From: Candidatus Portnoybacteria bacterium
GTDB taxonomy: Bacteria > Patescibacteriota > Minisyncoccia > Portnoybacterales > GWB1-42-6
DNA length: 64,000 nucleotides
Direction of reading: 5' to 3'
Assembly: GCA_028688325.1 (NCBI GenBank)
Contig: JAQTYI010000002.1
Span: forward strand, 9,395-73,394
Part shown: one piece after another, positions 5,110 through 62,257 of the stretch
Layout of the letters: each line of letters begins with the position of its first letter
Numbering within the stretch: position 1 is the first letter of the stretch
The notes under the pieces: generated by a model
What the model saw: the letters and a program-made list of their open reading frames with translations, nothing else
Databases searched by the model: none
What the model was told of the DNA's origin: nothing
Program-made: the position numbers and the translations under genes

Positions 5110-5265
5110 CCTAAAAAAGATTATGTCATTCCCGCCCCGCATCAAGTGCGGGGAGAATCCAGGTTTTTTGTCGCCCTGAACTTGCTTGCCTCGCCAAAGC
5201 TTTAGCGACGGTTGGGCTTCAGGGCCTGGATCCCGGGTCAGGCCCGGGATGACAATTCTATTAAT
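5110..5265. repeat. Palindromic dispersed repeat (tgtcattcccgcc…ggatcccgggtcaggcccgggatgaca)
   Basis: Related copies at 28076-28150 and 43048-43090. Confidence 0.55.
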
Positions 5266-12571: not shown

Positions 12572-12940
12572 TTATTTATTATTTGCCGCTTTTTTTGCGC
12601 CGAATTCTCCGCTCCCGAAATGATGCGCTATCTCGTGGCGCACGGTATCTTGAACTAGTTTTTTGATGGCCTCGGGCGTATGGGCGACCAGTTCAATTGA
12701 ATTTTTAAAAATAGAGATCTTATCAGGCAGCGCCATCGTGTAAGAATTTCTCTGAGTCAGGGGAACCCCTTCATACAGTCCCAATAGGGTCAAGTCGCTT
12801 CTCAATTTCAGCTTTCTCAATTGTTCATTATTGGGCTCATCTTCAACCACAATCGCCACATTTTTCAATCGCGCCAAAAATTCATCCGGAATCTCGTCTA
12901 TTGCCTCCGCTACCAGTTTTTCAAATTCCCCTCTATCCAT
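12572..12940 (-). CDS. Zincin-like metallopeptidase (DUF1025-type)
   Basis: TVRHEIAHHFG HExxH motif in a ~120-aa protein. Probable true start MDRGEF at 12940; the upstream MNIAEFLLPGM is encoded by a dispersed repeat. Confidence 0.6.
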   Translation of the reverse strand: MDRGEFEKLVAEAIDEIPDEFLARLKNVAIVVEDEPNNEQLRKLKLRSDLTLLGLYEGVPLTQRNSYTMALPDKISIFKNSIELVAHTPEAIKKLVQDTVRHEIAHHFGSGEFGAKKAANNK

Positions 12941-13072
12941 ACCAGGTAGTAGAAATTCGGCTATATTCATAAATCCGAATGGACTTGATCAAGCTTGCCA
13001 AACTCCATGATTTTATCTATTTTTACCAGTTAGCGATGATTCGGTTAAACAGCCGAATTTTCACTACCTGGC
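12941..13072. repeat. MITE-like element with terminal inverted repeats (copy 1 of 3)
   Basis: ccaggtagtagaaattcggct … agccgaattttcactacctgg termini around a ~100-bp core shared with the copies at 33036-33180 and 33512-33650. Confidence 0.7.
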
Positions 13073-13120
13073 ATATATATTTCATTATACAATAAAACAG
13101 AGAAAGATTAAAATAAAATG

Positions 13121-14973: not shown

Positions 14974-15257
14974 AAAATTTAAATTTATGACTCGAGCAAA
15001 TCAAGGACTTCCTTATTATACTATAATTTATCCCGAGCTCAGCGAGGGAAAACAAAAACTGCCCGAAAGCAGTATAAAAATATTATTCCTCGAGCGAAGC
15101 CCTGAGCGCAGTCGAGAGGTCTTACCACTTGCTTATTCCAAGTTTACCACGAAACTTTAAAAATGGCAAATATATTCCCGCGCCTATGCGCAAATGCGGA
15201 AACAAAAAGAAGTCGGAGTGAGTATGGCTCCGAAGTGGAAACTAATGAACACGCGGG

Positions 15258-26738: not shown

Positions 26739-26809
26739 TTGGGGAGGAGGGATTCGAACCCCCGATGACGGATTCAGAGTCCGTTGCCTTACCGCTTGGC
26801 TACTCCCCA
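26739..26809 (-). tRNA. tRNA-Gln (anticodon CUG)
   Basis: 7-bp acceptor TGGGGAG/CTCCCCA with U1 as in E. coli tRNA-Gln. D-arm GCCAAGCGGTAAGGC. Anticodon stem ACGGA/TCCGT with loop CTCTGAA. T-arm GGGGGTTCGAATCCCTC. CCA is not encoded. Confidence 0.85.
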
Positions 26810-26894: not shown

Positions 26895-28058
26895 TTATTT
26901 ACTTTCCGTCCCCGCCCATTCCACCACCGCCAATTCCAGCGGCAACTGAGGCAAGGAGGCGGATTTGATTTCGTTTTCCGCGCGGATCAAAAACCGGATA
27001 AGATTGATAAAGTCCGCACCGGTGAATTTACGCCCTTGCTCCAAAATAACCGTAAATTGCTCGTCCGTCAATTCCGGCGCGATGAGCTGGCGCATTTTTT
27101 CCGTTTCACCGCTTTGCTTCCAAGCGGCCAGGATCATCATTTTGCGGGCGTAATTTATCAATGATTTGGCAAATTGCCCGAGCTCATAGCCATCTTCCGC
27201 CAGCTTATTCACATAGCCCAGCGCTTCTTTGGCATTTTTAGTGACCAAAAAGTTCATCATATCCGCCACCGCCGCCATATCTGTGATGCCTAAAATCGTT
27301 TGCGCTTCGACCAGAGTAATGTTTTTATCTTCCATTGCCATCACTTGGCCCAGAAGCGACTCGGCGTCGCGCGCCGCGCCATCCGCGTTCAGCGCTATCA
27401 GTTCCAAAGCACCTTTATCGATCTTCAATCCTTCCTCCTTAGCGATGATTTTTAATCGCTCGATTATTTTATCCAGCGTCAATTTATGGAAATCAAACCT
27501 TTGGCAGCGCGAAATTATTGTCTGCGGAACCTTATGCGTTTCGGTGGTAGCTAAAACGAAAATGGCGTGACTTGGTGGCTCTTCCAGTGTCTTGAGCAGC
27601 GCATTGAAAGCTTCACGCGTCAACATATGCACTTCATCGATGATGAAAACCTTATATTTTAATTTGGCCGGCGAAAATTTTATGCCTTCGCGCAATTCCC
27701 GGATCTCGTCTATGCCGCGGTTTGACGCCGCGTCGATCTCTATTAAGTCCATGGCCCGGCCTTCGTTTATTTCCGCGCAAGAAGCGCATTTGTTGCAGGG
27801 CTCATAACTTTTTACTCCGAGCGATTTATCCCGAGTAGAATCGAGGGAAGTCGAAGAGCGGGCTTCGCAGTTCACGGCTTTTGCCAGCAAACGCGCAACT
27901 GTCGTTTTGCCCGTTCCGCGCGGCCCGCAAAACAAATAAGCGTGCGCTACTTTTCCCAGTGTCAAAGCATTGGTTATGGTGCGCACCACATGTTCCTGGC
28001 CGGAAACCTCAGCAAAGGTTTTTGGCCGGTATTTGCGGTATAAAACCAGATTTTCCAT
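26895..28058 (-). CDS. dnaX: DNA polymerase III subunit gamma/tau
   Basis: Walker A GPRGTGKTT, DEVHML, zinc module CNKCASC. It carries a ~15-aa in-frame repeat-derived insert (ARSSTSLDSTRDKSLGVKS). Confidence 0.9.
   Translation of the reverse strand: MENLVLYRKYRPKTFAEVSGQEHVVRTITNALTLGKVAHAYLFCGPRGTGKTTVARLLAKAVNCEARSSTSLDSTRDKSLGVKSYEPCNKCASCAEINEGRAMDLIEIDAASNRGIDEIRELREGIKFSPAKLKYKVFIIDEVHMLTREAFNALLKTLEEPPSHAIFVLATTETHKVPQTIISRCQRFDFHKLTLDKIIERLKIIAKEEGLKIDKGALELIALNADGAARDAESLLGQVMAMEDKNITLVEAQTILGITDMAAVADMMNFLVTKNAKEALGYVNKLAEDGYELGQFAKSLINYARKMMILAAWKQSGETEKMRQLIAPELTDEQFTVILEQGRKFTGADFINLIRFLIRAENEIKSASLPQLPLELAVVEWAGTESK
27806..27870. repeat. Dispersed palindromic repeat inserted in frame within dnaX
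   Basis: gagcgatttatcccgagtagaatcgagggaagtcgaagagcgggcttcgcag matches intergenic copies at ~38700-38760 and ~15040-15130. Confidence 0.6.
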
Positions 28059-28266
28059 AGAATTACCCTCTCTTTTTTTATCTTGTCATCCCGGGCTTAA
28101 CCCGGGATCCAGGCCTTGCCATTCCCGCCCCGTACTTGATATGGGGCGGGAATGGCAGAAAAAAGGATACCAGTATCAGCCAAAATTCACTCATATTTTA
28201 TCCTAAAAACAAAAAAGGCGCAACCGAAATTACGCCCCCGCATATCGAGATTAAATCTCAATATTT

Positions 28267-32585: not shown

Positions 32586-33041
32586 CTAAATCTCTTCCAA
32601 CTTCCCTTTTTCCACCAATTCCTTATGCAACTCTCCCACCAGCGCGTCATGGAATTCATCCATCAAATACGGGTTCTCCAGGTCGCGCGCCACATCCGCC
32701 GCGTAGACGACGCCTTTTTGAAACGCCAAATCAACCAAATTTTTTAACTGCTGGTTCTTTTCCAGGCGCTTGAATTGCCTTATTTCGGGCTTTGCCTCTT
32801 TGGCGGGAAACGGCAGTGCGCTAACGGGCTCCGCTGGAGCGGCTGAAGATAAAACGGCCGGTTTTTCCGCCGCGACAACCTGCTCCAAAGGCCTCTCTTT
32901 TTCTTTTTGCAACGCCGCTCTTTTGGCCGCTATTTGTTTTTCCAAGTCCGCAAGTTCCATCTCGGCCGAACTTAACGGCGCGGGAGGCGCCGATAGTGTT
33001 TCCGCCGATTGGTCGACCGGTTCGCGATATAGGTCTGGCAT
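32586..33041 (-). CDS. Hypothetical protein
   Basis: 151 aa, A/P/E-rich. The start codon abuts a MITE terminus. Confidence 0.4.
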   Translation of the reverse strand: MPDLYREPVDQSAETLSAPPAPLSSAEMELADLEKQIAAKRAALQKEKERPLEQVVAAEKPAVLSSAAPAEPVSALPFPAKEAKPEIRQFKRLEKNQQLKNLVDLAFQKGVVYAADVARDLENPYLMDEFHDALVGELHKELVEKGKLEEI

Positions 33042-33180
33042 ACCAGGTAGTAGAAATTCGGCTATATTTAATTAAATTCTATGGGCTTAATTAAAATCGC
33101 CAATTTTCCTATTTTTATTAAACTTCACCAGCCAGCAATAATTCGTTTAAACAGCCGAATTTTCACTACCTGGCATAGGG
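33036..33180. repeat. MITE-like element (copy 2 of 3)
   Basis: Same inverted termini and core as 12941-13072. Confidence 0.7.
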
Positions 33181-33212: not shown

Positions 33213-33512
33213 TCATACCAGCAAAGAATCCACTGTTTTTTGCATGTCTTGCTTAAAGTTCGCCACTTCTTCTTTGACCAGCTCTTCGTGGTTGGGAATA
33301 TTAGCCGCCAAAAATTGGCTTATTTTTTCCGTGTCTTCTCCCAGGGCCTCAAGCTCGCTCTTTTTTTCCTCGGCCAGCGCGCCGATGAGCCGTAGCGTTA
33401 TCCTTTTTAAAACCGCTTCGGTCATGGCGGTTAAAACCTCTTCTTGGCGCTCTTGCGGTAATTCCGCAATTCCCAATTCTTGAAAAATATTTTCCTCGAT
33501 TTGAGTTGGCAT
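33213..33512 (-). CDS. Hypothetical small helical protein
   Basis: Probable start MPTQIEENIF. The extra upstream MNIAEFLLPGM is encoded by a MITE. Confidence 0.4.
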   Translation of the reverse strand: MPTQIEENIFQELGIAELPQERQEEVLTAMTEAVLKRITLRLIGALAEEKKSELEALGEDTEKISQFLAANIPNHEELVKEEVANFKQDMQKTVDSLLV

Positions 33513-33650
33513 TCCAGGTAGTAGAAATTCGGCTATATTCATAAATCCATCTGGATTTAATTAGCTTACCGAATTCTATAATTTTATTTTTGTTTACCAG
33601 ATAATCTTAATTCGGTTAAACCGCCGAATTTTCACTACCTGGCATTTTTT
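33512..33650. repeat. MITE-like element (copy 3 of 3)
   Basis: Same inverted termini and core as 12941-13072. Confidence 0.7.
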
Positions 33651-36865: not shown

Positions 36866-38689
36866 ATGACAAAATACGCTTCTTGGATTGCTTCTTTGAT
36901 GTTAATTTTTATGGTCGGAATCGCGTTTTTCAGCCTGCGGGGCGACTCAGCCATAATGGACGAGGTTTCCCATCTGCCCGCCGGCTATTCATATGTCACC
37001 CAATTGGATATGCGCATCAATCCCGAGCATCCCCCGCTGATAAAAGACCTGGCGGGCGGAGCAGTTTTGCTTTGGTCGAAGATCACCGGCGCTAAAATAA
37101 ATTTCCCGTCCAATATCCCGGCTTGGCAAAGCATGATCAACGGCCAGTGGGACTTTGGTTTTGACCTTATGTATAAAGAAGGCAATCCGGCGGACCAAAT
37201 GCTGTTTTTCGGCCGCCTGCCAATGTTGGCGATAATGCTGCTGCTGGGAATTTATGTTTTCAAATGGACGCGGGAGCTCGCCGGTCCCGCCGCGGCGCTG
37301 CTGGCTACATTCTTGTATTCTTTCTCGCCGACCTTCATTGCCCACGGGCGGTTCGTCACGACCGATGTTGGCGCCGCGGCCGCGGTCTTTATCGCCAGTT
37401 ATTATTTCGTCCGCTGGCTCAAAAACCCCTCGGCTAAAAATTTGATCGCCGCCGGCTTGGTCTTTGGCATAGCACAGCTGGCCAAATTCTCGGTCTTTTT
37501 GCTGGTAATACTCTTTGCCATTATCGCCCTGCTTTGGGTATACCTAAAAACCCGGGAGGATAAGAAGTTCTGGCATAATCTTTATAAATACCTGGGCGGC
37601 ACGATATTGCTCTACGCCATCGGCTACATCGTTATCGTCTGGCCGGTCTACCTTTTCCATGTAGCCGACTATCCCATCGCCCGCCAGATCCAAGACACCG
37701 AATACAACCTAGCGACATTCGGCATGCGCCCCATCGCGAACCTCATAATTTGGATGGCTGGGATTCCTTATCTGCGCGCTCTGGCCCAATACGGACTGGG
37801 CCTGGCTATGGTGCTGCAGCGGGCGGTCGGCGGCAACACTGCTTACTTTTTGGGCGAAATTTCCAATACCGGCTCAAAAATTTATTTCCCGGTGGTATAT
37901 TTTCTCAAGGAAACCCTGACTCTCCATGTTCTGACCATCATTGCTTTGTTTTACGGCCTCTGGCAATTTGGCAAAAATAAAATCTACCGCCGGTATAATT
38001 TCAACAAGTTCTTAGAGCAAAACATCGCCCAGATAACAATGTTGGGATTTTTGGCAATCTATTGGTACTCCAGTTTGCGCTCCATCCTGAATATCGGCGT
38101 GCGCCATCTTATGCCGACAATCCCCTTGGTTTTTGTAATGACCTCCCAACAGATAGCTTTATGGCTGGAAGGAAATACCGAAGAGACCAAAACAAAACTC
38201 AAGCAAAATCTGAAATATGGATTTGTCGCCGCCTTAATAATCTGGCAAGCAATAAGCGTGGTCAGCGTTTACCCCTCCTTCCTGGCCTACTTTAACGAAT
38301 CCATCGGCGGCCCGGCCAACGGATACAAATATGTCACCGACTCCAACCTCGACTGGGGCCAGGATCTGCGGCGCCTGACCGCCTGGGTCAACGATAACAA
38401 GATTGATAAGCTCTATCTGGACTTTTTCGGCGGGGTTTTGCCGCAGTATTATTTGAACGGCAAATTCATGCCTTGGTGGGGCGAACGCAACCCGCAAGAC
38501 ATCCAAAAACAAGGCGGCTGGCTGGCGGTCTCCGCCTCCTTCCTGCAAGGCGGCCGAGGCAAGTTCGCGCCGGGATTTTACGATAAGAACGGCTACTACA
38601 ACTGGCTGAACGCCTATGAACCGACAGCCGTCATCGGCTACTCCATATTTGTTTATCATATCCCTGCGCAATTTGATTTTACTCCTTAG
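36866..38689 (+). CDS. ArnT/PMT-like (GT-C fold) integral-membrane glycosyltransferase
   Basis: 607 aa with ~12 TM helices. The N-terminal loop contains DE…H (DEVSHLPAGYSY), GT39/83-like. Confidence 0.6.
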   Translation: MTKYASWIASLMLIFMVGIAFFSLRGDSAIMDEVSHLPAGYSYVTQLDMRINPEHPPLIKDLAGGAVLLWSKITGAKINFPSNIPAWQSMINGQWDFGFDLMYKEGNPADQMLFFGRLPMLAIMLLLGIYVFKWTRELAGPAAALLATFLYSFSPTFIAHGRFVTTDVGAAAAVFIASYYFVRWLKNPSAKNLIAAGLVFGIAQLAKFSVFLLVILFAIIALLWVYLKTREDKKFWHNLYKYLGGTILLYAIGYIVIVWPVYLFHVADYPIARQIQDTEYNLATFGMRPIANLIIWMAGIPYLRALAQYGLGLAMVLQRAVGGNTAYFLGEISNTGSKIYFPVVYFLKETLTLHVLTIIALFYGLWQFGKNKIYRRYNFNKFLEQNIAQITMLGFLAIYWYSSLRSILNIGVRHLMPTIPLVFVMTSQQIALWLEGNTEETKTKLKQNLKYGFVAALIIWQAISVVSVYPSFLAYFNESIGGPANGYKYVTDSNLDWGQDLRRLTAWVNDNKIDKLYLDFFGGVLPQYYLNGKFMPWWGERNPQDIQKQGGWLAVSASFLQGGRGKFAPGFYDKNGYYNWLNAYEPTAVIGYSIFVYHIPAQFDFTP

Positions 38690-38867
38690 ACCTTTTAACT
38701 TCGCAGTTTACCCTGAGCGATTTATCCCGAGCGGAGCTGAGGGAAGCCGAAGGGTCTATCACATTCCGCCAAGTCCCGCCAGATAAATAATACACCAAAA
38801 ATAAAATTTCCCTCTCTGGGGGGATTTTATTTTGACCCTAACTCTAAGCGGGGCCTTCGCCTGCAAA

Positions 38868-39120
38868 AAATGTGTTGTATCAATCAGCGAGGGAGTCGGT
38901 TTTAAAACGCTCAATCCGATGAGTCAAACTTTTGGCGAGGCGTCCGCTGAGAAAAATGTCGCACACGAACTCCCTTGCAATTAGCGAGGGAGTTCGTTTT
39001 AAAACGCTCAATCCGACGAGCGGGCACGGTTTCCCGCTTTAGCGGGAAGAGCGAGGAGGATTGGCGAGTGAAATTTTCCTGGCTGGGGAAAATTTCACGA
39101 TTTTAAAACCGACTCCCGAG
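38868..39120. repeat. Composite/nested MITE region
   Basis: Two ~38-bp direct repeats (gcgagggagtYcgttttaaaacgctcaatccgaYgag) and an inverted terminal copy (ttttaaaaccgactcccgagcg). Internal copies of the gcgaggcgtccgctgagaaaaatgtcgc element. Confidence 0.55.
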
Positions 39121-39123
39121 CGC

Positions 39124-40002
39124 TTATTTATAATAGACCTTATTCGCCATCCTCAAATCCACATATTTCAGCCCGGCTCCCTTATTTTTTATTTCATTAT
39201 TCAGTAAAGCGTCCAAAACCCTGGCCTGCGCTTGGGCAGCGCGGCTTAAATTAAAATAGGCCAGCCAGCCCTCGCCGGTAAAAGCGACCAAGCTTTGGGT
39301 GTCGCCGGCCATCAGAGTGAAACCGGACAGATCCGCTCCGCTTTCCCGCAGTTGTTTTTTTATTTGCGCGGCAAATTTAATTGTTGAAGACGCGACCGCG
39401 CTGTTGCCAGGGCCGATATTTTGGCCCGGCTGGCTGAAAAATGTCGGCAAAGCGGTGCCAAAAATTTCCGGCGCTTCGCGGAAAACCAATCCGTCATCAT
39501 CCATAAAGAAGCATCCGTTGCTTTGCGGCATAAGAAAAAACATCTCCGTTGTTGTCGCGCTGTTCCCGGTCTGCGCCGCGTTTTGGCACCAAAAAGCCGC
39601 TGCCTGGCGCCCTTTCACAGTTATTTTGACCCCCTTGAAGATGTTTTTATCCACCGCCACGCTAACTGCCTCGGGAAAAGATCCCATAATCTTATCAGAT
39701 AGGTCGCTGCTGGAAAACATCAGCCAATTATCCCTGGGAATCTTTTTCCATATCTTCGCCCGGAAAAAATCATCCGCCAGTTCCTGCGCTTGCGCCGCAG
39801 CGGTGAAATTCACACCCTCGACGGCCAGTTTTTTTATCTTCAGGACAGGCGAGAAAATCGCCAAATATAAAAGCCCGGTCAGGGCTAATAGCAAGATTCC
39901 CAACCAAAGCCATACCCGCCAATTGATTGCGAACTTACGGCGGCTGGCTTTAACCGAGATAGCAAAAATTTTAGAGCGTTTTTTTCTCCGATAAGCGAAC
40001 AT
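39124..40002 (-). CDS. ftsQ: Cell-division protein FtsQ/DivIB-like (POTRA)
   Basis: Single N-terminal TM followed by a POTRA-like domain. Confidence 0.5.
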   Translation of the reverse strand: MFAYRRKKRSKIFAISVKASRRKFAINWRVWLWLGILLLALTGLLYLAIFSPVLKIKKLAVEGVNFTAAAQAQELADDFFRAKIWKKIPRDNWLMFSSSDLSDKIMGSFPEAVSVAVDKNIFKGVKITVKGRQAAAFWCQNAAQTGNSATTTEMFFLMPQSNGCFFMDDDGLVFREAPEIFGTALPTFFSQPGQNIGPGNSAVASSTIKFAAQIKKQLRESGADLSGFTLMAGDTQSLVAFTGEGWLAYFNLSRAAQAQARVLDALLNNEIKNKGAGLKYVDLRMANKVYYK

Positions 40003-42784: not shown

Positions 42785-43040
42785 ACGAAAAATTTTGTTA
42801 TAAAATCCTGGCGAGCCGAGCGTCTAAAATTGCCAGCGGGACAAGAGAACGGAGCGAATCGAGTTGTCCGCGGCGATTTTAGCAAGGCGAGGCGGATTTT
42901 ATATAAAATATATTTACTTGCTCGCTCGGAAATAAAAGTAATAACTTCTATTTCGCTCACTCGCTTCTTAAATCAAAATTTTATCGTCGCGCGCAGTCTT
43001 TTGGCTACTTTTCTGCTGCCAGAAAAGTAGCGAGATAAAT
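42785..43040. repeat. Dispersed repeat family (gctacttttctg…cagaaaagtagc hairpin plus cgtctaaaat…attttagacg)
   Basis: Matches 49215-49390. Confidence 0.55.
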
Positions 43041-43092
43041 ATTGATAAAAAATCCTGGATCCCGGGTCAAGCATGGGATGACAATTTATTTA

Positions 43093-47036: not shown

Positions 47037-48095
47037 TTATCTGGGCACTTCCCTGTATTGAGGCGAGACCAAAACTTCGCTTAGTCGCTCAATATCTTCC
47101 AAGACAATGCCGCATCCCCGCACCACCGCGGTCAAAGGATCTTCGGCCACCCGCACCGGCATTTGCGTTTCCTCGGCCACCAATTTGTCCAGCCCCCTCA
47201 GCAAGCTGCCGCCGCCCGACAAGACAATGCCGCGCTCCATGATGTCAGCCACTAACTCCGGCGGCGTTTGCTCAACAGCGGCTCGAATGGTATTAACTAA
47301 TATTTTTACGGACCTGGCCATGGCTTCCCTAATCTCAAAATCGCTCACCATCAATTCTTTGGGCAAGCCGTTGATAAGATCGCGGCCGCGCATCAAGGCC
47401 TTAGATTTTTCGTTCATATCATAAGCCGAACCAATGGAAATTTTAATATCTTCGGCGGTCCGCTCGCCAAGCAATAATTTAAATTCATCCCGCGCATATT
47501 TAATGATATCCTCATTCAATTTGTCGCCGGCAATCCGCAAACTTTTGCTGATGACTATTCCGCCAAGAGAAATTATCGCCACTTCACAAGTGCCTCCGCC
47601 GATATCCACTATCATATTGCCCACTGCGTCCTGCACGGGTAAGCGTGCGCCAATCGCCGCGGCCATTGGCTCCTCTATCAAAAAAACCTCGCGAGCCCCC
47701 GCGTTGCGCGCCGCATCTTCCACGGCCCGCTTTTCCACCTCCGTCACACCGCAAGGCACGCCGATAACCACCCTGGGCCGCGCCAAAAAAGACAAATTTT
47801 TGTTATTCACCTGGCCGATGAAATATCTGAGCATCTGCTCGGTCACTTCAAAATCCGAGATTACTCCGTCAACCAGAGGGCGCGTCGCCACGATATGGCC
47901 GGGAGTGCGGCCCACCATTCTTTTGGCTTCATTGCCGATCGCTAAAATCTGGCCGGTCTTTTGGTTAACCGCCACTACCGACGGCTCATTGATGACAATG
48001 CCTCGGCCGCGGACATAAACCAAAGTATTGGCCGTGCCCAAATCGATGCCGATGTCTTTTGAAAAATTTCCGAAAATTTTGCTTATCATAATCAA
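47037..48095 (-). CDS. mreB: Rod shape-determining protein MreB
   Basis: Actin-fold motifs GIDLGTANT, DIGGGT, LSGGGS. Confidence 0.95.
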   Translation of the reverse strand: MIMISKIFGNFSKDIGIDLGTANTLVYVRGRGIVINEPSVVAVNQKTGQILAIGNEAKRMVGRTPGHIVATRPLVDGVISDFEVTEQMLRYFIGQVNNKNLSFLARPRVVIGVPCGVTEVEKRAVEDAARNAGAREVFLIEEPMAAAIGARLPVQDAVGNMIVDIGGGTCEVAIISLGGIVISKSLRIAGDKLNEDIIKYARDEFKLLLGERTAEDIKISIGSAYDMNEKSKALMRGRDLINGLPKELMVSDFEIREAMARSVKILVNTIRAAVEQTPPELVADIMERGIVLSGGGSLLRGLDKLVAEETQMPVRVAEDPLTAVVRGCGIVLEDIERLSEVLVSPQYREVPR

Positions 48096-49214: not shown

Positions 49215-49390
49215 ATCAGAAAATCGAGATGAGCGAGTCGTCTAAAATCGCGTGCTGTGGTGGGGCCCCGACCGTCAGGTCGGGGCGTTGCGGATAGCGA
49301 TTTTAGACGAGCGAATCCGATTTTCTTTATTTTTTACGCTCGGGCGCGGTCTTTTGGCTACTTTTCTGCCGACAGAAAAGTAGCAAGAAA
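49215..49390. repeat. Dispersed repeat family copy
   Basis: cgtctaaaatcgc…gcgattttagacg inverted repeat plus ggtcttttggctacttttctgccgacagaaaagtagc hairpin. Confidence 0.55.
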
Positions 49391-49394
49391 AATT

Positions 49395-53118: not shown

Positions 53119-54108
53119 CTAAATTTTCGTCATTAAAACCTCCAGCGCCAGCCGCGCGTTAAAGCTCGGATTGTGCAAAATCGACTGGGTTTTTTGTATC
53201 TCGCGGCATATGCTAAGCAAATTGCCCGGGTGATATCCGCCTGCGGAAGTTCCACTCGTCCGACCGCTAACAGCCAGATCGGCGCAACCGCTGATTTCTA
53301 AAATTCTGTCCCTGAGACACAACACCCACTGATCCAGCGTTTCCCGCGCTTCAACGGTATTCTGTGCTAACTTTGCGGCCTGTTCCAAGCGCCAAACCAA
53401 CGGCGCTTTCAATATTTTTTCAAAAATTTCTATACTCCTTTCCTGCTCCGCCAGGCGTTCCGGCTCCCGTAATAATTGGATGGCGAGTCCCGGCCTGCCG
53501 GCGGATAATTTTATAGCCCGCTTGAAATCCGCTTCTTTTTTTGACAGACCTCCGAGCTTGGCCGACATTTCAATTTCGGGCACCGGCAAAAATTTTATCA
53601 GTTGGCAGCGCGAAACGATTGTCGGCAAGGCCGCCTGCCAAGATGAGCTTATCAAAATTATCAAACTGCGCGGGCTCGGCTCTTCCAGCGTCTTTAATAA
53701 AGCATTCGTTGCCTCGCCGCTTAAAGCCGCCGCCTCTTCGATTATGGCAATTTTATGCGAAGCGCCGTAAGCGGATAAACTTAACTTATGCTGCAAGGCG
53801 CGAATTTCGGCAATGCCGATTTCCTTATTTTTTAAAATATCATCTTTATCCGTTTGCTTGGCCGACAAAATAAGCATATCCGGATTTTGACCGCGCTCAA
53901 CCGACAAACACGATTTGCATTTGCCACAAGGTTCGGTAGGGCTTGTCCTGAGCTTTGTCGAAGGACAAAAAAGCCACTTAGCAAATTCCAGCGCGGTTGT
54001 TAGCTTGCCGACCTGCGCCGAGCCGACGAAAAAATAAGCATGCGCCAATCTATCCTGCTTGGCGGATCCGGTCAAAAAATCCCAAATTCGCTGATGGCCG
54101 ATAAGCAT
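53119..54108 (-). CDS. holB: DNA polymerase III subunit delta'
   Basis: AAA+ clamp-loader fold with degenerate P-loop GSAQVGKLT, CxxC zinc module, SRC-like motif. Confidence 0.8.
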   Translation of the reverse strand: MLIGHQRIWDFLTGSAKQDRLAHAYFFVGSAQVGKLTTALEFAKWLFCPSTKLRTSPTEPCGKCKSCLSVERGQNPDMLILSAKQTDKDDILKNKEIGIAEIRALQHKLSLSAYGASHKIAIIEEAAALSGEATNALLKTLEEPSPRSLIILISSSWQAALPTIVSRCQLIKFLPVPEIEMSAKLGGLSKKEADFKRAIKLSAGRPGLAIQLLREPERLAEQERSIEIFEKILKAPLVWRLEQAAKLAQNTVEARETLDQWVLCLRDRILEISGCADLAVSGRTSGTSAGGYHPGNLLSICREIQKTQSILHNPSFNARLALEVLMTKI

Positions 54109-54303
54109 AAAATAAATTACAACAATCCGCCTCGCGTATACAGAGAATCTTCTTCAGATCAAAAGCGAGGGGGTATTTTCTGAAACGCTCAGTTTTGCGA
54201 GCGGGCACGGTTTCGCCTTTAGGCGAAGAGCGAACAAAACTGGCGAATAAAATTTCCTGGCTGGGGAAATTTTATGATTTCAGAAAATATTTCCGAGCTT
54301 ATT

Positions 54304-55469: not shown

Positions 55470-55600
55470 TTATTGTCATCCCGAACGAAGTGAGGAATCT
55501 CTGGCTAATGCCAGACCCGTTGCGCGGATCTCCGCCTGATGGCGGATCCCGCGAGATCCCTCGCTACGCTCGGGACGACACTTCGTGTCGATTTTATCGT
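55470..55600. repeat. Palindromic dispersed repeat (gtcatcccgaacgaagtgagg … ctcgggacgacacttcgt)
   Basis: Homologous to 58385-58500; partial copy at 56024-56080. Confidence 0.6.
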
Positions 55601-55676: not shown

Positions 55677-56927
55677 TCAACTTATCAGTATCTTTAGCGT
55701 TTCCCTCGCGCATTTATCCCAGCTAAACCTCTTAACATTCTCATAACCCAATTGTATCAGTTTATCACGCAATGCCTTATCGTCAATTATCTGTTTGGCC
55801 GCCTCGGCGATTTGGGCGGGATTTTGGGGATTAACGAACAATGCCCCGCTGCCGGCAATTTCCGGCAAACAAGAACCATACGAAGTTATCACAGACACGC
55901 TCGCGGCCTGGGCTTCAAGCACGGGTAGTCCGAATCCTTCGTAAAAGGAAGGGAACAGAAAAACGGCCGCGTTAGAAAGTAATTGCCATTTTGCATCTTC
56001 AGATATATAACCAAGTTCGACTATTTTGTCATCCCGAACTTGTTTCGGGATCCCGCGAGATGCCGAAATAAATTCGGCATGGCAATTATTAAATTTCTCT
56101 ATCTCTTTTTTTAAATTTTTGTAACCATAGCCGGGCGCACCTGCCAAGACAAGTCGGTGCGGCGCGCCATATTCTTCTTTCAAAATCTTATACGCCTCCA
56201 AAATTCCTTGAATATTTTTTTTGGTTTCAATACGGCCGATATATAATAAATATGGTTCAAATAACTCCCCCTTACCCCCTCTTAATTTAAGAGGGGGTGG
56301 TTCTCCCTCCTTTTGCAAAGAAGGACTGGGGTGGTTTTCTCCTCCACTTAGATTAAGGGGAGGTTGGGAGGGGTTAGAAAAAGTCACTCCATGATGCACC
56401 ACGCTGATTTTCTCCGCTTCGCCGCCATATAATTTTACCAAGTCCCGCTTCGTGTTTTCCGATATCGCGATAATTTTTTTAGCGCGCTTGAACGCGTGTT
56501 TTGTACTCCAACGCAAATACATTCTGCGCCAAAACGAATAATACTGCGGGAAATGCTCATATTCCAAACCGTGCAGCGCCACTACGGAATTTGGCGGCGC
56601 GCCGAAGGGCAGAATATGAACGGGAATAAACAGCGTATCTGGTTTGTGCCGCCATACTTCCCAAGCCAACCGGATTTGCGTCCATAAAAACGGCAACGGC
56701 CAGCGCAGAATTTTTATTTCAAAATTAGGAGGCAATAGAAAATCGAAATATTTTTTATTCGTGTCATTCGCGCTAATTCGTGTATCGGTGTCGGGTAAAT
56801 ATAACAAAAACCGATGCTCGCGGGCCTCCGGAAGCATCGTTAAATGTTTTATCAGCTGATACGCATATTCTTCAACACCCGTGCGCGGCTGTTTTATCGC
56901 CGCCGCGGCATTAATGCCAATAATCAT
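55677..56927 (-). CDS. GT4-family glycosyltransferase carrying two in-frame repeat-derived insertions
   Basis: GT4 C-terminal domain (FLFPSFYEGFGLPVLEAQAASVSVI). Extra segments NCHAEFISASRGIPKQVRDDK and …GGENHPSPSLQKEGEPPPLKLRGGKGE coincide with palindromic repeats at 56024-56080 and 56270-56390. Confidence 0.75.
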   Translation of the reverse strand: MIIGINAAAAIKQPRTGVEEYAYQLIKHLTMLPEAREHRFLLYLPDTDTRISANDTNKKYFDFLLPPNFEIKILRWPLPFLWTQIRLAWEVWRHKPDTLFIPVHILPFGAPPNSVVALHGLEYEHFPQYYSFWRRMYLRWSTKHAFKRAKKIIAISENTKRDLVKLYGGEAEKISVVHHGVTFSNPSQPPLNLSGGENHPSPSLQKEGEPPPLKLRGGKGELFEPYLLYIGRIETKKNIQGILEAYKILKEEYGAPHRLVLAGAPGYGYKNLKKEIEKFNNCHAEFISASRGIPKQVRDDKIVELGYISEDAKWQLLSNAAVFLFPSFYEGFGLPVLEAQAASVSVITSYGSCLPEIAGSGALFVNPQNPAQIAEAAKQIIDDKALRDKLIQLGYENVKRFSWDKCARETLKILIS

Positions 56928-57334: not shown

Positions 57335-58348
57335 TTATTTTTTACTCATTATGCTCCTCTTGTAAACCTCCAAATGGTCCAGCGCCAAACCCGCGCCCTT
57401 GGCCACGCAAAGTTCTGGTTCATCGGCCCTGTAGCAGGGCACGCCAATCGCTTTTTCGATGAGTTCGGGCAAATTGCGTAACTTGGCGCTGCCGCCCGAC
57501 AATATCATTCCTCTGTCCATCACATCCGCGGAAAGTTCGGGCGGAGTATCTTGCAAGACCGCTTTCACCGTTTGGACAATTTCGCGCAGCTGCTCGGCGA
57601 TGGCCTCGGTTATTTCGTTGGTTTTTATTTCCACATTTTTGGGCAGGCCGGAAATCAGGTCGCGGCCGCGAACCTCAAAATATTGCTCTTCTTTGGGCGG
57701 CAAAGGCAGGGCCGAACCGATGGCGACTTTTATTTCTTCGGCTGTGCGCTCGCCGATGGCCAAGTTGTGTTTTTTCCTGACATATTCTGCAATGGCTTGG
57801 TCGATCTTGTTGCCGCCCACGCGCGCCGAAGCCCAGGCCACAATTCCGCCAAGAGAAATAACGGCCACTTCCGAAGTCCCCCCGCCGATATCAATTATCA
57901 TGTGGCCGGCCGGCTCATTGATGGGGATGCCCGCGCCGATGGCGGCCAGAACCGGTTCTTTCACGATATAGGCGGCCTTGGCGCCGGCATTCAGAGTAGC
58001 GTCAACGACCGCGCGCCGTTCCGTTGAGGTAATGCCCGCCGGAACTGCCACCATAACCTCGGGCCGGAATAAACGGAACGCGCCCGTGGTTTTATTGATG
58101 AAATAGCGCAGCATGGCCTCGGTCACCCGATAATCAGCTATCACGCCATCTTTCATGGGGCGCGATGCAACTATGGCTTCGGGGGTTCTCCCTAACATTT
58201 CTTTGGCTTCATTTCCCACCGCCAGTATCTTGTTGTCATCCAAAGATATCGCCACAACCGTGGGCTCGTTTATGACAACGCCTTTTCCCGGCACGAAAAC
58301 CAAAGTGTTGGCCGTGCCCAGGTCTATGCCGATTTTTTTAATAAACAT
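57335..58348 (-). CDS. MreB-like actin homolog (second paralog)
   Basis: GIDLGTANT, IDIGGGT, LSGGSA motifs. Start trimmed to MFIKKIG; upstream codons derive from a repeat. Confidence 0.85.
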   Translation of the reverse strand: MFIKKIGIDLGTANTLVFVPGKGVVINEPTVVAISLDDNKILAVGNEAKEMLGRTPEAIVASRPMKDGVIADYRVTEAMLRYFINKTTGAFRLFRPEVMVAVPAGITSTERRAVVDATLNAGAKAAYIVKEPVLAAIGAGIPINEPAGHMIIDIGGGTSEVAVISLGGIVAWASARVGGNKIDQAIAEYVRKKHNLAIGERTAEEIKVAIGSALPLPPKEEQYFEVRGRDLISGLPKNVEIKTNEITEAIAEQLREIVQTVKAVLQDTPPELSADVMDRGMILSGGSAKLRNLPELIEKAIGVPCYRADEPELCVAKGAGLALDHLEVYKRSIMSKK

Positions 58349-58384: not shown

Positions 58385-58500
58385 CAACATCGTCATACCG
58401 AACGAAGTGAGTGATCCCTCGCGAATGCGAGATTGTCCGCCCATTCGGGCGAGATTCCTCGCTCCGCTCGGAATGACACATCGTCGCGCGGCAAAAGTAT
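58385..58500. repeat. Palindromic dispersed repeat copy
   Basis: cgtcataccgaacgaagtgagtgatccctcgc … ctcgctccgctcggaatgacacatcgtcgcg. Confidence 0.6.
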
Positions 58501-58501: not shown

Positions 58502-59764
58502 TTATATCTTCTGAATGTCTGCACCAATATTTTTCAGCCTTCCTGCCAAATCTTCATATCCCCTCTCTATCTGATAAATATTGCTTATTTCCGTCTTTCC
58601 TTTCGCTATCAAAGCAGCGATAATCAAGGCGATGCCGGCGCGCAGATCGGGAATCACGAGCTTGCGGCCGTAAAGTTTGGTCGGGCCATTGACCACTGCC
58701 CTGTGCGGATCGGCCATAATAATATCGGCTCCCATTTGCGTTAAAGTATCGGTAAAAAGTAAACGGCGGTCGTATATTGTTTCGTGTATCAAACTGGAAC
58801 CATGGGCCTGGGTCATAAGCACTGTGTAGGCAGATTGCAGGTCGGTGGCAAAGCCCGGGTATTCATGGGTCACAACATCTTCCGCTAAAATTTTGGCGCT
58901 CGGCTTTATTTTGATGCTGCTTTTGCCCAATTCATAATTTACGCCGATCTTGTCAAACAAAGCCCAAAGCGCGCCCAAATGCGCCGGCTCGCAATCCTCG
59001 ATAATGATTTCACCGCTGTTTGACGCGGCCGCCAGAATGGCGAAAGTCCCCGCTTCAATGCGATCGGGAATTATTTTATACTCCCCGCCACCCAATTTAT
59101 CAACGCCCGTTATTTTAATGGTCGGCGTGCCTGCGCCGCTGATTTTCGCCCCCATGCGGTTTAAAAGATCCGCCAGCGCCGAAATTTCCGGCTCCATGGC
59201 GCAATTTTCCAAAATGGTTTCTCCTTGCGCCAGGCAAGCCGTGGTCATCAAGCTTTCCGTGCCAGTCACGGTGACTTTGGGAAAAAATATTTTCGCACCC
59301 CGCAATTTCTTAGCAGTCAGGCGATAACTGTTTTCTAAAATTTCCGCCTTGGCGCCCATTTTGGCGAACCCGTCCAAAAACATATCGATGGGGCGCGTCG
59401 CGCCGATAACACAGCCGCCTGGATGAGGAAAATAAACCTCGCCGCAAGTGGCCAGAAGCGGCCCGACAAACATGACCGCCGCGCGGAATTTATTGACGAG
59501 GTCCGCCGGCAGATTAACGCAAACCTTGCTTTTTCGCTGAATTTGCATCACGCTGCCGCCCAGATCTTTTACCTCATGGCCCAAAGCAACCAGCATTTCC
59601 TGCGCCCGGTGGCAATCTTCGATGTCCGGCACATTGATCATTTTTATCGGCTCATCCATCATTAAGGCCAGCGGAAAAACCTTAAGCGCGGCATTTTTTG
59701 CGCCCTTGACCTTAATGGTTCCGCTAAGCGGTTTTTGGCCATTTATGACGAATTTCGACTCCAT
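58502..59764 (-). CDS. murA: UDP-N-acetylglucosamine 1-carboxyvinyltransferase
   Basis: Full-length MurA collinearity with catalytic Cys loop (…HPGGCVIG…). Confidence 0.95.
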   Translation of the reverse strand: MESKFVINGQKPLSGTIKVKGAKNAALKVFPLALMMDEPIKMINVPDIEDCHRAQEMLVALGHEVKDLGGSVMQIQRKSKVCVNLPADLVNKFRAAVMFVGPLLATCGEVYFPHPGGCVIGATRPIDMFLDGFAKMGAKAEILENSYRLTAKKLRGAKIFFPKVTVTGTESLMTTACLAQGETILENCAMEPEISALADLLNRMGAKISGAGTPTIKITGVDKLGGGEYKIIPDRIEAGTFAILAAASNSGEIIIEDCEPAHLGALWALFDKIGVNYELGKSSIKIKPSAKILAEDVVTHEYPGFATDLQSAYTVLMTQAHGSSLIHETIYDRRLLFTDTLTQMGADIIMADPHRAVVNGPTKLYGRKLVIPDLRAGIALIIAALIAKGKTEISNIYQIERGYEDLAGRLKNIGADIQKI

Positions 59765-59765
59765 G

Positions 59766-59935
59766 AATTTATGCTTTAGCGAGGCGTCCGCTGAGAAAAA
59801 TGTCGCGCAGCCGCGCTGCTAAATCTTTTTATTTAAACCATCATTGCGCGGCGAGCGCCAAGCAGCAGCCGGGGTTGTACATTATGCTATCGCGACATGG
59901 CTGACTGCGGTTTTTCGAAGCGGACGCCGAGTCGC
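59766..59935. repeat. MITE-like element (gcgaggcgtccgctgagaaaaatgtcgcgcagccgc … ctgactgcggtttttc…)
   Basis: ~160 bp with imperfect inverted termini; second copy at 62268-62432. Confidence 0.65.
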
Positions 59936-61894: not shown

Positions 61895-62257
61895 CTATTT
61901 TGCTTCTTTCTTAAAAAGTTTCAGATTATTAATGATTTTGTCGCGCGTGCGGTTTTTCGGCAGCATGCCATAAACCGCGAGCTTCAACACTTCCCGAGAA
62001 TCCTTGGTCATAAGCTTTTCCAGGGCTATCTCTTTAAGCCCGCCCGGATAGCCGGAGTGATGCCTATACATTTTCTGTTTCAATTTTTTGCCGGTGAATT
62101 TTAAAAGGTCGGTGTTATAAACTTTCACGATATTTTCCGGAGTTATCCTGGGCAGAAAATTAGCGGTATTCTTGCTGCGCAGTAAAACCGCCGCCTCAAC
62201 GGCCAACCGGCCAAGGATTTTTCCCTTAGCATCAATTGTATGCTCTTTTCTTTCCAT
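61895..62257 (-). CDS. rplM: 50S ribosomal protein L13
   Basis: KGKILGRLA… L13 N-terminus. The ORF-track start at 62308 includes repeat-derived codons. Confidence 0.9.
   Translation of the reverse strand: MERKEHTIDAKGKILGRLAVEAAVLLRSKNTANFLPRITPENIVKVYNTDLLKFTGKKLKQKMYRHHSGYPGGLKEIALEKLMTKDSREVLKLAVYGMLPKNRTRDKIINNLKLFKKEAK

Follow-up and report, generated by a model that had tools for sequence, protein, structure and literature searches.

The window, meaning the whole 64-kb stretch of DNA that was analysed, carries a gene for the gamma/tau subunit of DNA polymerase III (dnaX). Its product matched both NCBIfam equivalog models for DnaX above their cut-offs (NF004046.1 at 474.6 bits, cut-off 400; TIGR02397.1 at 424.8 bits, cut-off 250), E. 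coli gamma/tau structures aligned with it at E 5e-72, and a protein from a Candidatus Portnoybacteria MAG (788,852-bp contig) was 100% identical to it. A sequence-only reading had proposed that a palindromic element of about 60 nt is embedded in frame within this gene. The element is real and the open reading frame continues through it: a covariance model (CM) of 50 positions and 38 copies, both full window copies among them, scored the dnaX copy at 69 bits with its full model length covered. The proposed length did not hold, since the clean insert described below and the covariance model place it at 48-50 nt. A 32-mer from the dnaX copy occurred once in the window, with none expected from shuffled sequences.

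The translated segment ARSSTSLDSTRDKSLGVKS is flanked by NCE and YEPCNKCASC, is open in frame throughout and separates the first cysteine of the Zn module from the second; the cysteines are conserved and are numbered here as presumed Zn ligands. In a structure alignment the stretch between the equivalents of Cys64 and Cys73 is 15 residues longer than that of E. coli gamma. The net gain over the basal ortholog loop NCENRKGFEPC was also 15 residues, although the insert itself has 16, because the native NRKG has been remodelled to ARS. AlphaFold2 modelled the insert as coil (mean pLDDT 48 for residues 71-80), with helices at 51-63 and 92-98 on either side. On the strength of this model we read it as a floppy 16-residue loop in an essential clamp-loader gene; there are no translation data.

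Table 1. The dnaX element, its second full copy and related hairpins in the 64-kb window.
Feature	Position	Strand	Basis or context
dnaX, DNA polymerase III gamma/tau, 387 aa, host gene	26895..28058	-	ORF listing, NCBIfam
Composite 48-nt GA-hairpin element plus 1-2 flank bases, inside dnaX	27810..27859	+ (antisense to gene)	CM, aligned with 37 other copies
Translated insert plus remodelled native junction, codons 65-83, ARSSTSLDSTRDKSLGVKS	27810..27866	-	Between Cys64 and Cys88 of Zn module
Inner 24-nt module of dnaX copy, ATTTATCCCGAGTAGAATCGAGGG	27824..27847	+	Columns 15-38 of copy alignment
Full copy in convergent intergenic region	38706..38755	+	CM 65 bits; 17 nt 3′ of stop of 607-aa PMT_2-type gene
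Inner 24-nt module of intergenic copy	38720..38743	+	Missing at orthologous site of relative L002
Inner-hairpin-only copy, intergenic, ATTTATCCCGAGCTCAGCGAGGGAA	15026..15052	+	CM 20.6 bits, E 0.001, model positions 15-42
Simple outer-type GA hairpin in holB (53119-54108, -), GCTTGTCCTGAGCTTTGTCGAAGGAC	53941..53966	+ (antisense, in frame)	CM 17 bits, E 0.012
Simple GA hairpin, TCCCGAGCGTAGCGAGGGA core, putative wider hairpin superfamily	55556..55580	-	CM 14.9 bits, pattern match, regex scan
Simple GA hairpin, TTCCGAGCGGAGCGAGGAA core, intergenic	58454..58478	-	CM 12.3 bits, regex scan

A homologous intergenic copy had been proposed at about 38700-38760, and the covariance model confirmed it. 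This copy and the one in dnaX have in common the exact 17-mer GAGCGATTTATCCCGAG, followed by GAGGGAAG and CGAAG, and the 5′ flank GTTTAC, which is the rarer type, is common to the intergenic copy and dnaX copies. A covariance-model search of the whole 64 kb found no third full copy. The further copy proposed at about 15040-15130 survived only as the inner hairpin listed in Table 1, accompanied by a weak relative of the element at 15083-15120 (14 bits, E 0.08).

The element consists of two nested 24-nt hairpin modules, 48 nt in total or 16 codons, so any insertion preserves the downstream reading frame. The outer module has the form CCCYGAGCG...AAGYCGARGGG, with CYTG or TTAC conserved 5′ of the stem, and the inner module (ATTTA-TCCCGAG-N5-TCGAGGG) is seated in its GCG^AAG loop. 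Each module is an imperfect palindrome in which a 4-bp helix is followed by a tandem G.A/A.G mismatch, and the REP signature GTAG is absent. GCGAAGC-type mini-hairpins with sheared tandem G.A pairs, a structural motif and not a genetic element, have the same stem, tandem G.A and triloop layout as the core CCCGAG-GC-NNN-GC-GAGGG / GAGCGAAG; they bear only on possible stabilisation of the hairpin as ssDNA or RNA.

Comparison with relatives revealed both filled and empty sites. Orthologs of DnaX mostly have the short loop NCENRKGFEPC, consistent with the proposal that the element was inserted between the conserved NCE and the CxxC Zn module, and alignment with them, the check that had been suggested, supported this: a relative with a 91% identical DnaX (P0003, loci L002/L003) has an empty site, while in a second relative (P0004, locus L001; 84% identical DnaX) a clean insertion of the same element, 48 nt long, falls precisely at the NRKG/FEPC junction. 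The intergenic site differs by one module only. In L002 the sequence TTTACCCTGAGCG is followed directly by AAGCCGAAGGGT, and in the window ATTTATCCCGAGCGGAGCTGAGGG stands between the two; the flanks are otherwise nearly identical, and what one site has and the other lacks is the inner module, neither more nor less: a discrete 24-nt indel within the loop of the outer hairpin, itself 24 nt long. Similarly, the dnaX of L152 carries the composite element minus 24 nt between CCGAG repeats.

Recombination in the loop was indicated by P0030 and P0035, in which both sides of the dnaX loop are 99.3-99.5% identical and the loop segment itself has been swapped. Within 90% protein clusters the element was fixed in the P0004 cluster, and only a different repeat was polymorphic, in the P0009 cluster. 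No filled/empty pair at >99% nucleotide identity was found for the 48-nt element, and insertion versus precise deletion, like the exact junctions, is therefore ambiguous. Neither a target-site duplication nor a defined cleavage site was visible at dnaX (L001 versus L002) or at the intergenic junctions, beyond the element's own CCGAG/CTGAG repeats.

Counting copies had also been suggested; here they were sought in public genomes and metagenomes, with an outcome that likewise favoured the original proposal. Exact-pattern scans matched at 48 loci of species-representative genomes and at 97 metagenome loci, corresponding to 105 unique copies, of which 57 (54%) lay inside called genes and about 46% were intergenic. 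Among Patescibacteria-labelled genome loci, 18 of 25 were in Pfam-verified genes. About 35 host genes were Pfam-verified; they are unrelated housekeeping genes from many Patescibacteria classes, with the element in frame, and include DnaX, Fe/Mn SOD (twice), HI0933-like flavoprotein, DprA, UPF0182, histidine kinase, Mur ligase, TypA, LepA, AspRS, AlaRS, class II aaRS, class I aaRS, M16 peptidase, transketolase, MnmA (twice), ThiI-like protein, CTP synthase, ATP synthase alpha/beta, GT4, UvrB, Pol I, GAPDH, TsaE, GyrB, Dus and beta-CASP nuclease. The pair of SOD hosts share 31% protein identity and yet carry elements alike at 44/50 nt in the same beta-turn, and the two MnmA hosts (47% identical) carry elements alike at 43/50 nt in the same loop.

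Outside Patescibacteria the element was found in MAGs labelled Nitrospirales, 'Proteobacteria' or unclassified, where copies were almost all intergenic. Each Patescibacteria MAG held 1-3 exact-pattern matches and copies were sometimes clustered (locus L049); copy number looks low, the 64 kb containing 2 full copies, and does not resemble the bursts of classical REPs or MITEs. As a test for a bias in replication strand, GC skew on the element strand was negative at 47 loci and positive at 32, a comparison confounded by gene orientation. A REP-like 3′-UTR role was considered and rejected, as neither the orientation of the intergenic copies nor their distance to flanking genes is clearly biased (upstream gene in the same direction for 24, opposite for 16). 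Carriage by phage was likewise rejected, the lone IMG/VR match having an atypical 8-nt spacer and lying on the same contig as metagenome locus L112, and being judged a chance match.

It is conceivable, though we think it unlikely, that the nucleic acid itself is functional, either as an RNA structure (in an antisense transcript, or through mRNA pausing or stability) or as an ssDNA signal (in replication, recombination or methylation), with the peptide a tolerated by-product. The four outer-stem pairs covary (CG/UA/GC/AU), even in coding copies: outer-stem cells were paired in 95.5% of cases versus 85.6% in shuffles, 0/500 shuffles reached the observed value, and pairing fell to 33-69% when the partners were slid out of register. 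The consensus '+' strand folds better than shuffles (-19.8 kcal/mol, z -2.1), and the opposite strand, which is the mRNA sense in most genes, gave -14.2 and z -0.2. Furthermore, the unpaired bases GAGCG, ATTTA and AAG are invariant or nearly so and lie outside the searched pattern; for the inner module, 20 bases were prescribed by the search pattern, which accounts for part of the conservation seen there. Where an insertion is shared between relatives, codons for identical residues were identical at 9/11 positions of the element versus 52% in the rest of the gene for dnaX, and at 12/13 versus 56% for lepA (combined P ~0.003, a hand-computed Fisher combination of two binomial tests). The element is thus more conserved than host synonymous sites, which could mean a nucleotide-level function and not purely selfish DNA.

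However, the high codon identity may also be explained by recent recombination, the lepA pair being alike even at variable loop bases. No Rfam family was matched: with Rfam 15 the only match in the window at gathering thresholds was a tRNA, and a search of 38600-39150 at E up to 10 gave nothing over the element. The absence of a consistent orientation or distance of intergenic copies to genes also argues against such a function, as do the lineage-specific, non-conserved sites and the degraded outer stem of the window dnaX copy (3/4 pairs intact). A nucleic-acid function would be compatible with mobility and would alter the reason for the element's persistence.

Of the 38 full copies situated in open frames of 190 codons or more, 30 are read in one antisense frame, encoding PSTSLDxARDKSLG, with 4, 3 and 1 copies in three other frames; five of the six frames of the element are open. 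The bias towards a single frame raises the question of whether the peptide is under selection, as a short linear motif (a modification, protease or interaction site) spread by a DNA cassette, which would make the DnaX insert functional. We regard this as distinctly improbable. Residues S19, L20 and RDKSL are invariant in 17 different hosts and the peptide is always in exposed loops, but its invariance follows in part from the fixed DNA search pattern. Moreover, about 46% of copies lie between genes, as do almost all of those in non-Patescibacteria MAGs, and GyrB, class I aaRS, Dus and beta-CASP nuclease use non-majority frames. Close DnaX relatives have no insert or have unrelated inserts in the same loop, and AlphaFold2 assigned the peptide no structure. 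A profile of 17 sequences (45-aa segments around the peptide) had 0 matches among 40 candidates, the word index used needing more shared words.

The loop that received the element is itself variable in length, about 45% of 120 DnaX orthologs being longer than the basal form, and P0004 has the segment at 84% protein identity. Both points could favour a native, drifting DnaX loop whose likeness to intergenic sequence reflects coincidence or local gene conversion, with nothing mobile. This we consider very unlikely: more than 30 genes with no relation to one another contain the same 48 nt, which are also found between genes in many classes, a relative as close as P0003 has an empty site, insert states are patchy on the DnaX tree and internal indels elsewhere in DnaX are rare. 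Conservation of the segment as native sequence in related DnaX proteins would have refuted the original proposal; it is common to one sub-lineage only.

The Zn-module loop of DnaX and of its window paralog HolB is a hotspot for several unrelated repeat-derived inserts. HolB, which matches PF13177 at E 9.5e-47, carries a simple hairpin that encodes PSTKLRTS in the paralogous loop (LFC-PSTKLRTS-PTEPCGKCKSC), a stretch that the closest HolB ortholog lacks (LFCENKGKQEKPCGKC). Two other insert types of the DnaX loop, the (CAATCACT)n octamer repeat and the 'ANLVGEERADTKLSV' element, had no copy in the window.

It is hardly credible that the 48 nt escape translation, whether by programmed translational bypassing or by a mini-intron-like removal from the RNA. 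The size of 48-50 nt, the hairpin and the mobility do recall the 50-nt gap of T4 gene 60 and the short mitochondrial inserts ('byps') of Magnusiomyces (PMC5009743; 10.1101/2022.08.31.505936). Nevertheless, no stop codon interrupts the frame in use or adjoins the insert, and the codons on its two flanks are not the same. Neither the length, divisible by three, nor the strong preference for one open frame would make a difference to a segment that was skipped. An assembly or binning artefact, which would also have refuted the proposal, can be given practically no weight even though short repeats can mis-assemble in metagenomes, since the dnaX ORF is intact and in frame, the identical protein occurs on two contigs (in NCBI, Logan and NCBI nr) and the P0004-type dnaX insert is present in at least five independent assemblies (L001, L006, L111, L144 and cluster members) from JGI, ENA and NCBI.

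We therefore favour, with a probability of roughly 0.8, the interpretation that the dnaX feature is a copy of a palindromic DNA element, small, dispersed and non-autonomous, and that this copy landed antisense in the gene, is translated and is tolerated. What was directly observed is the same element elsewhere, filled and empty sites, stem covariation, location in loops, frame and orientation bias, and modular 24-nt indels; the mobility mechanism and the translation are inferred. Copies would be propagated at the DNA level, a single-stranded hairpin on which an enzyme acts in trans being the probable intermediate. An HUH/RAYT-like or IS200/IS605-like protein is the obvious candidate enzyme, and none was found: among 126 ORFs around 21 copies there was no recurrent neighbouring transposase (no family had >3 ORFs, and the 25 families listed included no transposase or Y1/HUH gene), and no IS with element-like ends was seen in the fetched loci.

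In dnaX a copy would have landed in the Zn module, in the surface loop that runs from its first cysteine ligand to its second, and would now be transcribed and translated as a hydrophilic, disordered (P)STSLDxxRDKSLG stretch that the clamp loader tolerates. Selection presumably filters insertions, leaving those copies that lie in permissive loops and whose orientation and frame yield a flexible, soluble peptide together with the weaker mRNA hairpin. Within genes, homologous recombination between related strains and slippage at the CCGAG/CTGAG direct repeats may move, swap and shorten copies; such events, also inferred, would give the patchy pattern on the DnaX tree.

A broader hypothesis, which we put forward only tentatively, is that the element belongs to an undescribed superfamily of modular 24-nt 'GA-hairpin' elements in Patescibacteria and some other environmental bacteria, homing into one another's GCG^AAG loops and also into a small number of protein loops that tolerate them, among which would be those of the Zn module in DnaX and HolB. 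The conservation at synonymous positions within essential genes would then reflect ongoing activity at the nucleic-acid level (homing, gene conversion, or ssDNA or RNA function) and the copies would not be inert relics. If this were true, 'protein-coding palindromes' would have a second case in Patescibacteria, independent of the first and much broader.

Translation of in-frame palindromes within genes is a pattern documented so far mainly for Rickettsia, and here a different, far smaller element presumably does likewise in many Patescibacteria classes. Patescibacteria have tiny genomes with about 90% coding density, which leaves a mobile element hardly any other place to insert. The element offers a mechanism for many unexplained short insertions in CPR (Patescibacteria) proteins, as well as a natural experiment that marks permissive loops in essential enzymes, among them DnaX, HolB, GyrB, Pol I, aminoacyl-tRNA synthetases and SOD. 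It is also a warning that CPR marker genes, as annotated and as aligned for phylogenomics, include repeat-derived segments, and its 24/48 nt make a tractable substrate with which to identify the enzyme that moves such hairpins. We found no paper containing the peptide or DNA strings of the element, the sole match to RDKSLG being a myosin-VI paper, and none linking RPE-like, REP or MITE elements with CPR/Patescibacteria.

Several known systems resemble the element in part. REP/BIME sequences and the PATEs of IS200/IS605 are dispersed imperfect palindromes of 20-40 nt with a short conserved 5′ sequence and no evident target-site duplication; the 24-nt modules with their CYTG/TTAC flank recall this layout, a likeness that is only partial without the REP signature. 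In REP/RAYT and IS608 systems the hairpin is recognised on single-stranded DNA, and this is the most plausible chemistry here too. REPs, however, are extragenic by definition and usually number hundreds per genome, whereas this element lies in genes for over half of its unique copies, looks sparse and lacks GTAG; the extragenic criterion is not met. MITEs are 100-400 bp long, end in terminal inverted repeats, are flanked by target-site duplications and can be traced to a parent IS. The 48-nt element is a whole nested hairpin and does not consist of terminal inverted repeats around a core, it produces no visible duplication, and it fails the MITE criterion, although classical MITEs (ERIC, Correia/NEMIS, Nezha, BOX) are also non-autonomous, with occasional intragenic copies that are translated (PMC10969869).

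Bypass elements, exemplified by the T4 gene 60 gap and 'byps', are short (27-55 nt) mobile inserts in essential coding sequences (PMC5009743; 10.1101/2022.08.31.505936), and the gene 60 gap also forms a hairpin (PMC5009743). Those inserts break the frame and need bypassing signals, in contrast to an element that is a multiple of three, open and without such signals, and their criteria are not met.

The closest behaviour is that of the Rickettsia palindromic elements, and RPE-like, the term originally applied to the dnaX feature, is a fair description of it. Both are dispersed palindromes found between genes and in frame within many unrelated genes, essential ones included; both encode a conserved peptide, fit the fold of the host protein and occur in a reduced-genome, host-dependent lineage (PMC10969869). 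The criterion of a palindrome that is intergenic and also in frame within many ORFs is met by the unique copies counted above. RPE-1 to RPE-10 are about 100-150 bp long, encode a 30-50-aa peptide and are confined to Rickettsia (Ogata et al. 2000, 2002, summarised in PMC10969869), where their frequency is unusually high, similar behaviour in other prokaryotes having only been speculated upon (PMC10969869). By comparison, the present element encodes 16 aa in two nested 24-nt modules with tandem G.A mismatches, and the hosts in which it was found are many Patescibacteria classes and other MAGs, so that it departs from RPEs in length and in the hosts found, and membership of the family is not implied. 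A relationship in sequence is not to be expected, and the frame bias (30/38) and the recurrence of hotspot loops were quantified for the present element. The element behaves like an RPE and is not an RPE.

The product of the window dnaX scored 474.6 and 424.8 bits against two NCBIfam DnaX equivalog models, exceeding both cut-offs, and was 100% identical to a Candidatus Portnoybacteria MAG protein encoded on a 788,852-bp contig. Residues 65-83 (ARSSTSLDSTRDKSLGVKS; window 27810-27866, plus-strand DNA TTTTACTCCGAGCGATTTATCCCGAGTAGAATCGAGGGAAGTCGAAGAGC) are flanked by NCE and YEPCNKCASC, and alignment revealed a gain of 15 residues relative to E. coli gamma between the positions matching its Cys64 and Cys73, which are the first two zinc ligands in the four-cysteine module of domain I. 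The cysteines of the window protein are C64, C88, C91 and C94; among orthologs C64, C91 and C94 were invariant and C88 nearly so. An AlphaFold2 model built with a 60-sequence alignment (mean pLDDT 82) predicted residues 64-91 to be coil, with pLDDT <50 at 75-81 and confident helices on either side (51-63 and 92-98). That the insert is read as protein is assumed from its open frame. Bypassing and splicing are both unlikely, as the insert lacks the signals described for programmed bypass elements (PMC5009743) and as otherwise neither frame nor length would matter.

Alignment of 120 DnaX orthologs placed the insert at the NCE/CxxC loop, the basal sequence of which is NCENRKGFEPCNKC. The site is empty (AAT CCC AAG GGT/TTT GAG) in the ortholog P0003 (loci L002/L003), which is 91% identical to the window DnaX, and P0004 (locus L001, 84% identity) has the same element as a clean insert of 48 nt precisely at the NRKG/FEPC boundary; in the window protein the native NRKG is changed to ARS on top of the insert. 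Orthologous sites demonstrably differ in the presence or absence of the element. The sequence-only reading had proposed a palindromic repeat in frame within dnaX, at this loop, together with a related intergenic copy, and this was confirmed by the ORF, the alignment, and the 17-mer, 8-mer and 5-mer that the two copies have in common, far above chance. The size claimed (~60 nt) was too large, as the element measures 48-50 nt, and of the two intergenic sites named, ~38700-38760 holds a full copy, situated between convergent genes and 17 nt beyond the stop codon of one that encodes 607 aa, whereas ~15040-15130 holds only a partial one.

Features of the window bearing on the element (GA hairpin: hairpin with a tandem G.A/A.G mismatch in the stem)
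Feature	Position	Strand	Details	Evidence
Inner-hairpin-only partial copy	15026-15052			covariance model/sequence
Weak relative of the element	15083-15120			covariance model/sequence
tRNA gene	26739-26809	minus	~85 nt downstream of dnaX stop codon	Rfam RF00005, 69.6 bits
dnaX ORF	26895-28058	minus	387 aa	ORF listing
Second full copy	38706-38755		intergenic; plus-strand reading GTTTACCCTGAGCGATTTATCCCGAGCGGAGCTGAGGGAAGCCGAAGGGT	sequence
holB	53119-54108	minus	Pol III delta', DnaX paralog	PF13177
Simple GA hairpin in holB	53941-53966		antisense, in frame; encodes PSTKLRTS	covariance model, regex, translation

At the orthologous intergenic site of L002 (...TTTACCCTGAGCG/AAGCCGAAGGGT...), where the flanks are near-identical to those of the window, the window has exactly 24 extra bases (ATTTATCCCGAGCGGAGCTGAGGG, 38720-38743) inside the loop of the L002-type hairpin. 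The dnaX of L152 (P0008, PSTSLGV) equals the composite, i.e. the full element with both modules, without the 24 nt lying between two CCGAG repeats. Inner-only or outer-only units are also found alone, both in the window (15026-15052 and 53941-53966) and in the DnaX of P0025, P0018, P0033 and P0041, and in other genomes the inner module occupies the GCG^AAG loop of differing host hairpins (e.g. GTCATTCTGAGCG/AAGCGAAGAATC). The element thus consists of two 24-nt modules, one nested in the other; the junctions do not allow insertion and slippage deletion to be distinguished for any given difference.

An exact-pattern scan with 20 inner-hairpin bases fixed (ATTTATCCCGAG-N5-9-GAGGGAAG) matched 48 loci when run on contigs from one genome per species, and metagenomes gave 97. 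Dereplication left 105 unique copies, coding and intergenic, including 65 full composites, and the repeat is established as dispersed, structured and modular. Record labels, which are unverified, included Adler-, Berkel-, Kaiser-, Nomura- and Sungiibacteria, Paceibacterota and 'Saccharibacteria' among Patescibacteria, as well as Nitrospirales and 'Proteobacteria' MAGs; nine copies came from one unclassified MAG. In one intergenic region of a 'Proteobacteria'-labelled MAG (LacPavin; L049 1100-1420), three diverged copies and other hairpins were observed within ~300 bp, resembling a BIME-type REP cluster. Aligned copies were conserved beyond the fixed pattern (5′ GAGCG and 3′ YCGA), and the four outer-stem pairs covaried (CCCC/GGGG, CCCT/AGGG, TGGT/ACCA, TCCT/AGGA and others), with 95.5% of outer-stem cells paired compared with 85.6% after shuffling (0/500 shuffles equalled the observed value) and 33-69% in slid registers. 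Both stems contain a tandem G.A/A.G adjoining a G-C pair; for the invariant part an alternative, fully Watson-Crick/G.U register is possible and cannot be excluded. No Rfam family matched the element.

Among 25 copies from Patescibacteria-labelled genomes, 18 sit in long ORFs that encode ordinary housekeeping proteins according to Pfam, and metagenome loci contributed further coding hosts; copies of non-Patescibacteria MAGs are nearly all intergenic. The combined hosts are Fe/Mn SOD (twice), HI0933-like flavoprotein, DprA, TrwB-like ATPase, UPF0182, histidine kinase, Mur ligase, TypA/BipA, LepA, AspRS, AlaRS, another class II aaRS, a class I aaRS, M16 peptidase, transketolase, MnmA (twice), ThiI-like protein, CTP synthase, ATP synthase alpha/beta, GT4 glycosyltransferase, UvrB, DNA polymerase I, GAPDH, TsaE, GyrB, Dus and beta-CASP nuclease. 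In-frame residence at disordered loops in many essential genes is established. Because the element is 48 nt long, the downstream frame is kept at each insertion. All but one of its six frames lack a stop codon. Of the 38 full copies located in open frames spanning 190 codons or more, 30 are read in a single antisense frame ((P)STSLDxARDKSLG), four and three use the sense frames PSDLSRxxSREVEG and ERFIPSxVEGSR, respectively, and one uses the antisense frame RLPSTKLGINRS, demonstrating a marked frame and orientation bias. The favoured peptide is hydrophilic with a net charge of zero, and the consensus RNA folds more strongly as the plus strand (-19.8 kcal/mol, z -2.1) than as the complement (-14.2, z -0.2), so that mRNA from the favoured orientation contains the weaker of the two hairpins. 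Both properties fit a selective filter, and we infer that selection may have caused the bias, with a phase-specific insertion mechanism not excluded as its source.

Extra sequence was present in the zinc-module loop of ~45% of the DnaX orthologs, internal indels being rare outside it, and belonged to at least six unrelated sequence types. Besides composite and simple GA hairpins, these include a two-hairpin 'ANLVGEERADTKLSV...' element and, in the dnaX of P0010 (L153 152-1333), a perfect (CAATCACT)x4.5 octamer repeat translated as SQSLNHSITQSLN, the persistence of which in an essential gene is odd because an 8-nt unit shifts the frame on slippage. A decayed version of this repeat was observed in L004 (P0002, the closest relative of the window DnaX). 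Members of the P0009 cluster (90% identity) differ in whether they have a 12-aa repeat-derived stretch unlike the element (PHQNKFGTGQAG), which is nested within a larger insert in the loop (EKRNQES...IRNQG); this is a presence/absence polymorphism between close relatives. When the loop was masked, insert states were patchy on a neighbour-joining tree, with sisters differing. The dnaX genes of P0030 and P0035 (L150 2501-3721 and L151 10001-11155) share 99.3-99.5% DNA identity flanking the loop on both sides, and the loop segment is swapped together with a few flanking substitutions, one allele having a two-hairpin 'ANLVGEERADTKLSV...' element, longer by 66 nt, and the other the basal ENRKGS. 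The difference looks like a recombinational patch swap; the swapped loop points to allelic recombination as one route of insert spread.

In the window HolB (LFC-PSTKLRTS-PTEPCGKCKSC) the hairpin lies right behind the first zinc cysteine, at the paralogous position and in the same frame as the dnaX insert, and repeat-like inserts of at least 19 residues were found in the zinc loop of 9 of 78 HolB orthologs with recognisable zinc-module spacing. Two SOD hosts (31% identical) have the element in the same loop, as do two MnmA hosts (47% identical), and the copies within each pair are 86-88% identical. The simplest reading is that a few permissive loops are used repeatedly.

Where diverged orthologs have an insertion in common, the element is far less diverged than the synonymous sites of its host. 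Codons of identical residues were themselves identical in 9/11 cases within the element and 52% in the remaining gene for dnaX (window vs L001), and in 12/13 cases and 56% elsewhere for lepA (L060 vs L123). Either selection at the nucleotide level or later homogenisation or transfer of the segment could account for this; homogenisation or transfer is favoured because the lepA pair has identical loop bases.

Other repeats were also observed in the window. A GT4 glycosyltransferase gene (55677-56927, minus strand) has two more stretches that appear repeat-derived (56025-56090 and 56262-56363): NNCHAEFISASRGIPKQVRDDK is encoded by copies of two repeat families, GTCATCCCG...CGGGATCC and GGATCCCGCGAGAT, the other copies of which are found mostly in intergenic DNA, and the DNA of PPLNLSGGENHPSPSLQKEGEPPPLKLRGGKGEL is self-complementary. 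Palindromic repeats TTGTCATCCCGGGCTTAACCCGGGATCCAGG and CATTCCCGCCCCGTACTTGATATGGGGCGGGAATGG are paired directly upstream of the dnaX start codon (28083-28118, 28128-28160) and again, inverted, at 5121-5153 and 5220-5255, with one of the two also at 43054-43086. A ~140-nt element at gene ends (12934-13079, 33039-33177, 33510-33646) has 29-nt terminal inverted repeats (CATACCAGGTAGTAGAAATTCGGCT...AGCCGAATTTTCACTACCTGGCAT) and appears MITE-like. Several further short dispersed repeat families (D5, D14 and D19; 38886-39044 and 54164-54225; 59760-59799 and 62253-62292; 42979-43040 and 49332-49393) are mostly intergenic, two copies lying within crudely called ORFs, and in the convergent spacer 38690-39123 (434 bp) three or more types of repeat form a mosaic. 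The segments 47554-48059 and 57840-58339 (D6, D8), ~10.28 kb apart with 74-78% DNA identity, are probably paralogous genes.

Exchange of a loop segment by recombination is demonstrated; spread by an enzyme acting in trans on a single-stranded hairpin intermediate is inferred. No transposase was found among the 25 families listed for 126 ORFs flanking 21 copies, with no family in more than three ORFs, and a search of viral contigs found no phage carriage. No target-site duplication was visible at the dnaX (L001 vs L002) or intergenic (window vs L002) junctions.

A full-text literature search found no paper with the DNA or peptide strings of the element, the sole match to RDKSLG being a myosin-VI paper, and nothing connecting such elements with CPR/Patescibacteria. 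Among known systems, the element satisfies neither the 'extragenic' criterion for REPs nor the TIR and TSD criteria for MITEs. Its behaviour matches that of Rickettsia palindromic elements (RPEs) as summarised in PMC10969869, bearing out the likeness drawn in the sequence-only reading; it fails their length and host criteria and is therefore not an RPE. The findings are of considerable interest because, with an element that is modular and far smaller, they extend 'protein-coding palindromes' to an entire phylum.
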